DNA of 64,000 bases from Flavobacteriales bacterium (lineage in GTDB: Bacteria; Bacteroidota; Bacteroidia; Flavobacteriales_F; PHOS-HE28): the NCBI GenBank assembly GCA_041391845.1, contig JAWKNG010000003.1:235053-299052 (forward strand), written 5' to 3'. The translations under genes were made by a program, and so were the position numbers. Of the stretch, positions 597-9,750 are shown in pieces. Position 1 is the stretch's first letter. The number at the start of each line of letters is the position of its first letter. Below the pieces are notes generated by a model. The model was not told the origin of the DNA and searched no databases. It saw nothing but the letters and a program-made list of their open reading frames with translations.

Positions 597-629
597 GAGA
601 AAGCCCCGTTTCTGCAACGGGGCTTTCTC
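597..629. terminator. Perfect 14-bp stem-loop (gagaaagccccgtt/tctgc/aacggggctttctc) between convergent genes; likely a bidirectional intrinsic terminator
   Basis: Inverted repeat read directly from the sequence. It sits between the stop at 577 (+) and the stop at 644 (-). The U-tract is weak. Confidence 0.5.
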
Positions 630-643
630 ATTGATGCAAGGAC

Positions 644-1084: not shown

Positions 1085-1162
1085 GTCGCTAGGTTCTGAC
1101 AAGCCCGTTAAGGCAAGCACTTGTCTAGACTTAAAGGTTGCCGAACTTGCGCGGTCAATCGA

Positions 1163-1258
1163 CTGAGCACCTGAGCACCTGAGCACCTGAGCACCTGAGC
1201 ACCTGAGCACCTGAGCACCTGTGCACCTGTGCACCTGTGCACCTGTGCATCAGTGCAT
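1163..1258. repeat. Octanucleotide tandem repeat: 7x CTGAGCAC, then 4x CTGTGCAC(T), then CAGTGCAT
   Basis: Read directly from the sequence. The 8-bp period is not a multiple of 3. It lies in the divergent intergenic region between the LytTR gene (-) and the 1465 gene (+). Confidence 0.95.
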
Positions 1259-1464
1259 CACCAAACTGGAAATAGAGACTGATGCTGTCGAGCATAGGGC
1301 TCCTTAGACGTTGATGTCCCATCGAAAGTAGGAAAAATTCATCCGATCCATTCGTCACCCGCTTAATTACGGTTTGTGCAACTTCATACCAGGCCCCTTT
1401 CACCCGAAATAACGGCGTCTTGGTCGGCATCAATGAATTACGGAGTAGTTCCTACCTTCAAACC

Positions 1465-3168
1465 ATGCGCCTGCCCGTGCTCGCCCTTTGCATGGTCGTC
1501 TTCCGATCCCTTGCAGCGCAGCATGTGATCGAAGCTCGGGTCATCGATGGTGACAGTTCAGAACCGCTGCCTTACGCCACCGTGCTGCTCAACGGAAAGG
1601 CCAAAGGCACCATTTCCAATGCGGAAGGCCGATTCCGGATGCCACTCGGTAACGCTTCGGACAGCTTGCGCATCACTTATGTCGGCTATCGACCCGTGAT
1701 GGTCCCCTTATCCATTGCCCTAGATGGCAAGGTCATCCTGATGGACCGCACGGTACATGAGCTCGGTGAAGCGGTGATCCGACCGGGAGAGGACCCTTAC
1801 AAAAGGTTCGTTGCGGCCTCGAACTGGATGCGACGGGCACCGGAAGTATCCTCCAAGCTCTACTTCGGCCTGGAAACCTACAGCGATGATGACCCCGTTG
1901 AGGTCATGGAGGGCTATTTCAACGCGACGTTTAAGGCCGCCATTCTCCGGAGCTTGCGCTACAAGCAAGGCATCATCGGCCTGGCACCCAAGGATGGCAG
2001 GCATTTCATCAACTACAACACGGCTTCCGCCCTCGTGCTGCTGGATATCCACAGCAGGCAACCTGAGTTCCCCTTGTCTCCTTTCTCCTGTGGCACCGCC
2101 CGGGACCTCAAAAAGCACTATTCGGTCGAATGGGTTTCCACGGGCATCGGACCCGAAGGTGTGGACCAGCTGGTGGCCGTACCGCGCGCGGGAACATCAG
2201 GTGCGTTCAAGGCGGCCCTTTGGCTGGTCTCAGGTAGCCAGGCCGTCAGGGCGTTGGAGCTTCAGTGCATCGATTGTTCGCGGCACCCGCTCATTCCACT
2301 CTTTGACGATGGCCGGATCGACACAGTGGACATTCGCTACAAGCAAACCTGGAGCACGAAGGGCCCTCCGATGCCTGAGGTGATACAAGTGGACTACGCC
2401 GTGGCATACACCGCTCCGGCCTTCCATGAACGGTACAGCACCAATGTGGTGCTCCATGCCTATGACCGGGACCAGCTCTTCATCCCTACCCTGTTCCCTT
2501 GGAAGAACGGATTGAACGAATACCCCATGATCGCCTGGATGCCCAGGGACACTGCCTTCTGGAAGCGTATGGCACCACCCGTTCCCACGGAACGCCAGAC
2601 ACGGGACCGCGATATCTTGCTTCGCAATGATGTCACACAGAACGCTTGGTTCGACAGCCTGCGGCTCGATCATCACCACCTTCGACCGCACTACCTGGCC
2701 TGGTCCAAGGACCTCTGGGTCGATGGCACCCATCTATCGGGCGTTCCGGTGGACCGGCCGAACGATGGCAGAAGCCCTCCGAACGTGCAACTGACAACAC
2801 ATCTGTACCTGGACCTCGACACCACTGGTGGAACACTGCACCACCGGACCCTCGCCGTGTTGGATGCGCAGGCATCCTGGTATCTGTATCCTTGGGAGCC
2901 ATGGGCCTCCGCCTACTGCACCTTGTTCCTGGACCTTTGTGAGATCGAACGACGGGCATTGGAAGAGCGACTCAACGAACCCGGCATGACACTGTCCCGT
3001 GCACGCCAGTTGCACAAGGAGCACACCCAACGGATGAAGGATGAACAGAAGCGCTTCCTGATGACCGTGGAAAGCCAGTTGATCCAACTCAGAAGCTGGA
3101 ACGTAGGTGTTCGTGAAACACTCGGAGTTGATCGGCTTCGTGGTGCCCACCTGGGCCCCGAGGAATAG
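1465..3168 (+). CDS. Secreted protein with an N-terminal carboxypeptidase-regulatory-like (CarboxypepD_reg) domain; function unknown
   Basis: A signal peptide (MRLPVLALCMVVFRSLAAQ) is followed by IEARVIDGDSSEPLPYATVLLNG..GTISNAEGRFRM, typical of CarboxypepD_reg. The ORF is long and matches the local composition. Confidence 0.6.
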   Translation: MRLPVLALCMVVFRSLAAQHVIEARVIDGDSSEPLPYATVLLNGKAKGTISNAEGRFRMPLGNASDSLRITYVGYRPVMVPLSIALDGKVILMDRTVHELGEAVIRPGEDPYKRFVAASNWMRRAPEVSSKLYFGLETYSDDDPVEVMEGYFNATFKAAILRSLRYKQGIIGLAPKDGRHFINYNTASALVLLDIHSRQPEFPLSPFSCGTARDLKKHYSVEWVSTGIGPEGVDQLVAVPRAGTSGAFKAALWLVSGSQAVRALELQCIDCSRHPLIPLFDDGRIDTVDIRYKQTWSTKGPPMPEVIQVDYAVAYTAPAFHERYSTNVVLHAYDRDQLFIPTLFPWKNGLNEYPMIAWMPRDTAFWKRMAPPVPTERQTRDRDILLRNDVTQNAWFDSLRLDHHHLRPHYLAWSKDLWVDGTHLSGVPVDRPNDGRSPPNVQLTTHLYLDLDTTGGTLHHRTLAVLDAQASWYLYPWEPWASAYCTLFLDLCEIERRALEERLNEPGMTLSRARQLHKEHTQRMKDEQKRFLMTVESQLIQLRSWNVGVRETLGVDRLRGAHLGPEE

Positions 3169-3324: not shown

Positions 3325-3666
3325 TCACCGCCCCTCCTCCACAACCGAACTCCCGCTCGACCCTTCCCCACTGGTCCAGCGCCATGCCTCGTGCAGGCGG
3401 ATGCGCCCATCGGGGAGAAGCTCCGGCGTTGACCGGCACGCACCGGTCATCAGCTCGCCGCGGTCGTTCACCTGGTGGTGGCGCATGTCCAGGCGGCCCT
3501 CGGCATCCACCAAGGCGATCAACTGCCCGCTGACGATGCGCCCACCGGAATAGCGGCAGGTGACGATGCGGCCGGTCTGCAGGTAGTGGAACACCACTTC
3601 GGGCGAGACCTCGCCATTGGCGCTGTTGCTCAAGGGGATGAAGCGGCGGTCGTGGTAGTTGATCAT
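3325..3666 (-). CDS. Hypothetical protein (113 aa), high GC, no recognisable domain
   Basis: This is an ORF with an ATG at 3666 (MINYHDRRF...). Overlapping alternative frames look like compositional artefacts. Confidence 0.35.
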   Translation of the reverse strand: MINYHDRRFIPLSNSANGEVSPEVVFHYLQTGRIVTCRYSGGRIVSGQLIALVDAEGRLDMRHHQVNDRGELMTGACRSTPELLPDGRIRLHEAWRWTSGEGSSGSSVVEEGR

Positions 3667-4159
3667 GGGGTGTTGGCGAGCGTGTGAAGGTTCGAGATCA
3701 GAGCGATGGATGGGAAGGAACGGATGCGAGCCGTAGGGCGCCGGCTCAAGAGTGGCGGACAGACCCGATGCAGGTTTGGGGGAGGGGCATATATTGAGTG
3801 CCTCATAGATGCGACGGAGAGATAACCGCACTGTAGTTCACCCCTCATCCTTTCGGCCTTTCCACGAAATGCTGGACAGGTACACCTATGTTTCTGTTCG
3901 TTACAAACTAGCAACCCAATCGGCCTTCATTAAGTCGTTGGACAGCTACCCAAGACCATGGACTAGCGCATCGTGGGGTCGAACGAACAGAGCGTTATCA
4001 AGCAAAGATCTTGTCGGCGACGCCAGCCACAGCGACCATATCAAGCAGGATGTGCTTGAACGGGAGATCACTGCCGCTGGCAGTTCCCTGGCTGAATGGC
4101 ATGCCTATCTGTGCACGCCTTTCACAGGTGAAAACGAAGATTGGGGAACGGAACTCGCG

Positions 4160-6939: not shown

Positions 6940-9750
<2,811 letters not shown>

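Follow-up and report, generated by a model that had tools for sequence, protein, structure and literature searches.

The locus and its flanking genes

The tandem array considered here lies in a divergent intergenic region of 380 bp within the stretch of DNA that was analysed, a window of 64 kb with a GC content of 61%. It is flanked by a minus-strand gene for a stand-alone LytTR DNA-binding protein and a plus-strand gene for a protein with a CarboxypepD_reg-like domain (Table 1). The LytTR product matched PF04397 with E = 2.4e-8 and 34.5 bits (cutoff 22.6) over model positions 2-97 of 98, and no receiver domain was found in the Pfam search of this protein. At NCBI, it is entered as 'LytTR family DNA-binding domain-containing protein [Flavobacteriales bacterium]' on a MAG contig of 555,742 bp. 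The earlier note on this DNA had placed the array 79 bp from the LytTR ATG and about 200 bp from the CarboxypepD_reg gene; both distances were confirmed, with ATG 1084 facing the array edge at 1163 and ATG 1465 lying 207 bp from 1258. An alternative LytTR ATG at 1060 is 103 bp from the array, and it is this start that is conserved in the related contig L005, in which the codon at the position of 1084 is TTG.

The LytTR gene and the plus-strand gene that precedes it in the window converge, with stops at 644 and 577, respectively, and a GC-rich hairpin occupies the gap between them. This hairpin is likely a bidirectional terminator that ends the LytTR transcription unit, and it explains the sole Rfam signals in positions 500-1600, which were sub-threshold matches over it.

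On the other side of the intergenic region, the motif TACCTTCA close to the start of the CarboxypepD_reg gene was conserved in the contigs L002, L005, L129, L130, L131 and L132. In the general form TAnnTT(C/G)A, it stands 4 nt before the CarboxypepD_reg ATG in relatives with 73-89% protein identity, and homologous positions were located in L002, L003, L004, L005 and L129-L132; L004, the 58% relative, has the TAnnTTGA variant TATATTGA 5 nt before the ATG. The motif may be a -7-like promoter box, which would imply a near-leaderless mRNA.

Table 1. Features at the array locus, numbered from the first nucleotide of the 64-kb window (L005, L130 and L131 are contigs with related sequence, described in the text)
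Feature	Position	Strand	Basis
GC-rich hairpin gagaaagccccgtt-tctgca-aacggggctttctc	598..631		Sequence read
Gene for stand-alone LytTR DNA-binding protein, 146 aa, MEZ4757050.1	644..1084	-	Pfam and NCBI match
Conserved block, TCGA-TTGACC-N17-TTTAAG on the minus strand	1130..1162	-	Near-identical in the window, L131 and L005
12-unit period-8 tandem array	1163-1258		Sequence read and unit parsing; no indels
Array block A, seven perfect CTGAGCAC (GTGCTCAG in LytTR sense)	1163..1218		Sequence read, TRF, unit parsing
Array block T, three perfect CTGTGCAC	1219..1242		Unit parsing
Two degenerate distal units, CTGTGCAT (1243-1250) and CAGTGCAT (1251-1258)	1243..1258		Unit parsing
Conserved distal block CACCAAACTGGAAATAGAGACTGATGCTGTCGAGCAT	1259..1300		Window, L131 and L005; recognisable in L130
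Motif TACCTTCA, 4 nt upstream of the CarboxypepD_reg ATG	1453-1460		Conserved in relatives
Divergent gene, 567 aa, MEZ4757051.1, signal-peptide-like N-terminus and CarboxypepD_reg-like domain	1465..3168	+	Pfam PF13715 and PF13620; cluster membership

The octanucleotide array

Direct reading and unit parsing bore out the 12 units of period 8 that had been described in this region. The part given in the earlier note as four copies of CTGTGCAC has to be corrected, as parsing resolved it into three exact copies and two variant units. Each CTGTGCAC unit holds the palindrome GTGCAC. TRF scored the array at 146 (period 8, 10.9 copies, 98% matches), and the runner-up among the 33 TRF rows of the window scored 71; the array is the sole strong tandem repeat within the 64 kb. 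Outside the array, stray copies in the window number three (plus strand) and one (minus strand) for CTGAGCAC, and five and one, respectively, for CTGTGCAC, which is at about chance expectation. An assembly artefact is excluded, because independent assemblies of the locus have the array at the same position with other unit numbers.

Unit number at the same locus in relatives

The locus was explored through a genome scan with the CarboxypepD_reg protein, the closest LytTR homologues and the CarboxypepD_reg protein cluster. The genome scan recovered three species-level relatives, with 89, 73 and 58% identity; none of the three had the array, and their upstream neighbours differed from those of the window. 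Searches for exact matches to the LytTR protein, in versions of 146, 196 and 138 aa that differ in their start, added no contigs, and the extra alleles came from the CarboxypepD_reg protein cluster.

In L131 (Logan, SRR7903765), the flanks at the same locus were identical to those of the window at 438 of 453 positions (96.7%) with no indels, and the array consisted of two CTGAGCAC and two CTGTGCAT units with no CTGTGCAC, that is, four units in 32 bp against the 12 of the window, a difference of 64 bp. In L005 (JGI, Ga0116236_10235061), the flanks were identical to those of the window at 381 of 451 positions (84.5%) with one 1-nt indel, and the array comprised three CTGAGCAC units, one 7-nt CTGGCAC and one CTGTGCAC unit (five units, 39 bp). 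The comparison of repeat number across relatives proposed in the earlier note thus gave 12 units in the window, five in L005 and four in L131, and its description of a slippage-prone simple-sequence repeat (SSR) was upheld by this variation between flanks that are almost free of indels. Nearly all length change in the region of about 550 bp falls inside the array, and the two unit types changed independently between strains (7+3+2 versus 2+2 versus 3+1+1 units). Furthermore, all units of a block are identical even where the flanks have diverged by about 15%, as between the window and L005, indicating continuing homogenisation by slippage. L130, whose CarboxypepD_reg protein is 78% identical, has CTGAGCAC-CTGGGTTT-CTGTGCAT at the homologous place, a three-unit proto-array with each unit in single copy, which shows that the array grew out of sequence already in place. 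The confinement of length change to the array, along with the perfection of its units, provides direct comparative evidence of ongoing slipped-strand expansion and contraction from an identifiable precursor. On this sequence comparison, we regard the array as a slippage-prone, strain-variable octanucleotide VNTR in non-coding DNA. Each of the three alleles is from a different sample, and with 3-15% divergence among them, the change in unit number could be slow.

The arrays of the window, L131 and L005 measure 96, 32 and 39 bp, respectively. The alleles with an ATG at the annotated LytTR start have 12 and four units, both multiples of four, and 32 bp correspond to about 3.05 helical turns; the L005 allele, with its IS-truncated LytTR gene, is off-phase. 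A phasing constraint is possible, but three alleles are far too few for the pattern to carry meaning. L001, a Logan contig of SRR28338171 that encodes an identical CarboxypepD_reg protein, stops 21 bp from the array (L001:1 corresponds to window position 1280), and the last 29 nt of L131 at its LytTR end (L131:1-29) diverge from the window inside the LytTR coding sequence. Strain mixtures, rearrangement or assembly tips could account for both of these ends.

Loss of the LytTR gene in relatives

The LytTR gene is absent beside the CarboxypepD_reg gene in L002, L129, L130 and L132, and L002 and L129 have neither array nor LytTR gene. L132 is identical to L005 at 202 of 203 positions on the CarboxypepD_reg side; the homology ends about 20 bp distal to the array site, the distal block is retained solely from AGACTGATG onward, and both the array and the LytTR gene are missing. 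In L130, a remnant of the LytTR upstream region is recognisable, and the gene itself has been replaced by REP-like hairpin elements. In L005 (1204-1638), the LytTR gene breaks off after codon 104, with a stop behind ...GFAVM, and is followed by a new ORF, MKKSKWTEAQIVGMLREHE, which we take to resemble the N-terminus of IS3-family OrfA transposases; an IS insertion probably inactivated the regulator in this contig. Upstream of the LytTR homologues with 60-69% identity (L006-L008), no repeat was found. With its loss, truncation or divergence in relatives, the LytTR gene looks dispensable in this lineage, which weakens the case for an adaptive switch.

A REP- or MITE-like hairpin element, about 70-110 bp long and bounded by CCGCAGGGT...ACCCTGCGG, recurs upstream of the CarboxypepD_reg gene in relatives (L132:215-325; L129:1000-1110 and 1490-1525; L130:3300-3365 and 3640-3715) and marks sites without LytTR gene and array. 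No copy of this element was found within the 64-kb window.

Coding potential

Repeats with a period not divisible by three are classic coding-frame switches. The argument of the earlier note, that a period that is not a multiple of three makes the array non-coding, is thus invalid, since such repeats make exactly these switches. The array is nevertheless non-coding, as had been claimed, and this is upheld by stops, by the substitution pattern and by an annotated start downstream of the array. Read on the plus strand, (CTGAGCAC)n meets a TGA in each of the three frames, and no frame of its reverse strand is closed; the 196-aa ORF is the LytTR frame read upstream through this open reverse strand, up to a GTG inside the array. 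The earlier note was right to call that ORF spurious as far as its 5' extension is concerned, and the protein annotated at NCBI is the 146-aa product that starts at ATG 1084. In L005, the extension frame is closed by a TGA that stands in frame 66 nt before the conserved ATG, and further upstream, a 1-nt indel separates the window from L005 within the putative extension. Between the window and L131, 7-8 of the 10 substitutions in the part of the extension upstream of the array are nonsynonymous in every frame. The Pfam search of the upstream 92-aa ORF and the extension found no match, and more distant LytTR homologues begin with MDER..., which aligns with MRED.... The LytTR coding sequence itself differs between the window and L005 by 10 synonymous and five nonsynonymous codon changes; the gene is intact in the window and under purifying selection.

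Promoter-like and conserved sequences beside the array

The array ends 4 bp from the TTGACC-N17-TTTAAG block, the best-conserved piece of the intergenic region, in whose -35- and -10-like elements we infer a candidate core promoter of the LytTR gene. A sigma-70 consensus scan of positions 560-1500 returned no promoter, and the 1130-1162 block failed it. A Bacteroidota scan (TTG-N15-23-TAnnTTTG, at least 5/6) found nothing on either strand of the intergenic regions of the window and L005; the same scan found perfect TAnnTTTG boxes upstream of the distant LytTR homologues L006 and L008. Beyond the far edge of the array, the distal block includes the inverted repeat ATGCT-N4-AGCAT at 1282-1295. 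Rfam 15 at E <= 1 gave no match overlapping 1163-1258, DNA and RNA folding of the array region revealed no special structure (z = -0.3 and +0.4), and an inverted-repeat search found no inverted partner for the array, its matches being internal GTGCAC palindromes only. An array of 96 bp cannot lie between -35 and -10 elements; as it is too long for that spacer, the shift in 'promoter-element spacing' proposed earlier can only mean the spacing between an upstream site and the promoter.

The same octamer in other contigs

JGI metagenome contigs were scanned for three consecutive CTGWGCAC units, and arrays of three to about 19 units were present in at least 120 contigs with 37-73% GC. Among the approximately 124 other arrays listed, none had a LytTR or CarboxypepD_reg gene next to it, the hmmsearch matches being receiver domains, and a crude comparison with heuristic ORF calls revealed no clear bias in the orientation or position of the listed arrays relative to ORFs. 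In viral contigs, the motif had three matches, compared with two, none and none for three composition-matched control octamers, and the octamer thus cannot be claimed to be special. We treat the unit common to the window and the other contigs as a coincidence until controls say otherwise.

Several contigs with about 65-67% GC, a number of them from sample Ga0209640, have inverted array pairs directly after stop codons. These are built of the heterogeneous octamers GGTGCTCA, GGTGCTTA, GGTGCTCG and GGTTCTCG and form hairpins of 200-270 nt, with sites at L036:1700-1975, L038:9980-10210 and 7669-7791, and L061:1100-1240; further contigs of this kind are L012, L055, L065, L086, L089, L091 and L119. 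L036:1700-1975 folds at -179.7 kcal/mol compared with -100.8 for shuffles (z = -15), and a neighbouring protein in L036 is 73-75% identical to NCBI 'Vicinamibacterales bacterium' proteins. We know of no description of such Vicinamibacterales-like hairpins of inverted octamer arrays. In contigs with 52-57% GC, TRF found long (GTGCAGAG)n arrays of about 153 units (L104:133-1360), 103 units (L126:7-838), 60 units (L058:710-1203) and 33 units (L023:222-491), which look like satellite DNA.

Membership of the window array in a dispersed intergenic repeat family of the TAACTGA, REP or Vicinamibacterales kind was considered and rejected, with one array in 64 kb, stray units at about chance frequency and no inverted partner.

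Interpretation of the array

Considering these results, we propose the following scenario. The array may be a hypermutable octanucleotide VNTR that is made and kept homogeneous by slipped-strand mispairing, in the non-coding region common to the LytTR and the divergent CarboxypepD_reg genes. Each unit gained or lost would shift the distal block, and whatever lies beyond it, by 8 bp relative to the promoter-like block, a helical rotation of about 274 degrees. In this way, unit number may tune or switch LytTR transcription, heritably and reversibly, and hence the targets of the LytTR protein. This would be the most economical mechanism, and it is modelled on the 7-/8-bp repeats upstream of the Haemophilus hmw genes; by this analogy, the array could plausibly act as a phase switch or as a rheostat of expression that is inherited. 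The complete proposal, a hypermutable VNTR that acts as a heritable rheostat or switch on LytTR expression, is tentative, and we place it a little short of probable. That its target is a regulator counts against the switch, as contingency loci typically act on surface or restriction-modification genes.

Nearly as probable as the functional rheostat is a neutral VNTR, which we consider a distinct possibility. Slippage would then have produced the array in intergenic DNA that is decaying and under little constraint, and its copy number would drift, unselected and with no effect on regulation. Consistent with drift, most relatives have lost the LytTR gene or carry it in truncated or divergent form, and neither the two consensus scans nor the Rfam and folding searches tied a promoter, family or structure to the array. 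Drift also fits the arrays of the same unit in at least 120 unrelated metagenome contigs, which share neither a constant orientation nor an associated gene, and the viral counts of three against two, none and none, which suggest that octamer arrays arise readily. However, the array of the window stands 4 bp from the best-conserved block, upstream of a gene that is intact and under purifying selection, and the longest and most perfect array is found in the one genome with a demonstrably intact LytTR gene. Furthermore, the insertion or removal of 64 bp next to a promoter is generally known to change its activity as a rule. A translational frame switch, in which the array would lie within an N-terminally extended LytTR coding sequence and unit number would set an upstream start in or out of frame, could draw on the reverse strand being open in all frames. 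It could also draw on L131, in which, with four units, the LytTR frame crosses the array without a stop and reaches ATGs as far as 243 nt upstream, and on the window, in which, with 12 units, the upstream 92-aa ORF is one base out of frame. The in-frame TGA and the 1-nt indel in L005, the excess of nonsynonymous substitutions in every frame of the extension, the extension's lack of a Pfam match and the NCBI start downstream of the array, which agrees with the MDER... starts of the homologues, all stand against such a switch; we rejected it as extremely unlikely.

The earlier note had also suggested that the array is an iterated transcription-factor site. If the units were amplified half-sites of an operator, bound by LytTR or by some other factor, with (GTGCTCAG)n or (GTGCACAG)n as the candidate, their number would set occupancy, autoregulation or titration. 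Tested weakly, and for LytTR, the suggestion did not hold up: the consensus that we used, taken to be [TA][AC][CA]GTTN[AG][TG], has no exact match in 1085-1464, and the period is 8 bp, whereas characterised LytTR operators are paired 9-bp sites about 21 bp apart (12-13 bp between repeats). The homologues L006-L008, with 60-69% identity, also lack the array upstream, and none of the arrays listed elsewhere adjoins a LytTR gene. What points towards binding is that, in LytTR sense, the best unit phase, TCAGGTGCT, agrees with seven of the nine positions of this consensus, and that one-mismatch sites stand at both array edges (CCAGTTTGG at 1261 and TCAGTCGAT at 1158), with 11 such sites in the intergenic region compared with 5.1 +/- 2.3 in shuffles, a mild enrichment. 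In the window and L005, the DNA that separates the array from the ATG contains a unit-like RGTGCTTG, noticed post hoc, which also occurs upstream of the more distant LytTR homologues L006 and L007. A LytTR operator would be a weak lead, and we consider an iterated binding site improbable. Still less probable, in our judgement, is a cross-phylum family of GCAC-type octamer arrays with a common origin or function that includes the Vicinamibacterales inverted hairpins. The identical unit is arrayed in at least 120 metagenome contigs with 37-73% GC, and contigs with about 65-67% GC carry paired inverted arrays folding at z = -15; the window array, however, is single, without inverted partner or special fold, it has no further copies in 64 kb, it grew in place from a single-copy proto-sequence, and the viral counts did not establish an enrichment over control octamers. 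It is likewise very unlikely that (CTGAGCAC)n and (CTGTGCAC)n belong to one cross-phylum class with a shared cause, such as a conserved DNA- or RNA-binding factor or a sequence-specific slippage or copying process; if they did, the Flavobacteriales promoter array and the Vicinamibacterales post-stop hairpins would be two uses of one element.

If unit number does tune LytTR, the locus would be a case in which heritable differences in expression depend on an SSR, in a Flavobacteriales lineage that is environmental and high in GC, and the switch would act on a transcription factor instead of a surface protein, so that one repeat could reprogram a regulon. Known switches in Bacteroidota are mostly invertase-based. 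The earlier note called the array unusual for a high-GC Bacteroidota-like genome; our literature searches found no precedent, and no paper was recovered when full texts were searched for the sequence of the repeat. A neutral array would simply illustrate, in a clean natural case, how an octamer repeat changes stepwise by slippage, with a single-copy precursor that can be identified. In practice, the locus can serve directly as a VNTR strain marker for this uncultured lineage, and the array is a place at which short-read assemblies may break or miscount.

Comparison with known systems

The closest parallels are the repeats upstream of the Haemophilus hmw genes, and in NTHi, repeat number was reportedly linked by experiment to HMW expression in the 1999 work of Dawid et al. 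The repeat in the promoter regions of NTHi hmw1A and hmw2A is the 7-bp unit ATCTTTC, and the putative hmw promoter region of H. influenzae biogroup aegyptius carries 12-15 copies of the octanucleotide GCATCATC (PMC3309571). The array described here resembles them in having a unit of the 7-/8-bp class that is not a multiple of three, about a dozen copies, a non-coding position upstream of a gene and a number that varies between strains; the copy number of the hmw repeats also differs between loci, a further likeness to the array. Unlike hmw, in which the target is an adhesin of a host-adapted pathogen, the gene putatively affected in the present case encodes a small regulator and belongs to a Flavobacteriales MAG from the environment, and whereas the NTHi repeat is linked to expression, the window array is known from sequence alone.

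In Neisseria meningitidis, nadA has a TAAA tract. Moraxella catarrhalis uspA2 has an AGAT repeat in its 5'UTR, according to the summary in PMC4679880. As in nadA and uspA2, the SSR of the window lies outside the -35/-10 spacer, and theirs, upstream of the core promoter or in the leader, tunes expression instead of just disrupting the promoter. However, their units are tetranucleotides and their mechanisms have been dissected experimentally, whereas the present array is a sequence observation. A survey by Mrazek et al. (2007), as outlined in PMC4679880, concerned long SSRs with units of 5-11 nt in free-living, often high-GC bacteria. The window array, likewise an intergenic array with a 5-11 nt unit in a non-pathogen, resembles this class, which is thought to arise by polymerase slippage and for which function is not necessary; theirs is a statistical class and no mechanism, in contrast to the one locus within 64 kb described here. 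Direct repeats of the heptamer TAACTGA occur in Beggiatoaceae, Cyanobacteria and a few Bacteroidetes (PMC4679880). They share with the present octamer the arraying of one short unit across distant phyla, mostly in intergenic DNA, as well as stops in all forward frames and a translatable reverse strand. TAACTGA arrays are, however, many per genome and lie a few nucleotides from starts, unlike the one array of the window, at 79-103 bp and 207 bp from starts.

In LytTR-family genes, autoregulatory LytTR sites usually occur immediately before the -35-like element, and the array shares this location with operators of the AgrA, ComE and AlgR type. In contrast to these operators, the period is 8 bp instead of 9-bp pairs about 21 bp apart, there is no exact consensus match, and the neighbouring LytTR protein differs from the AgrA, ComE and AlgR systems in being without a receiver domain.

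Like SSR contingency loci, the array is long enough for slippage (seven and three perfect units), with a unit polymorphism between strains that is confined to the array. The contingency locus named in the earlier note, with reversible switching inside a population and an effect on expression, would be its candidate role. It is thus a new example of a familiar slippage-prone repeat type, for which, by analogy with these systems, an effect on gene expression is plausible.
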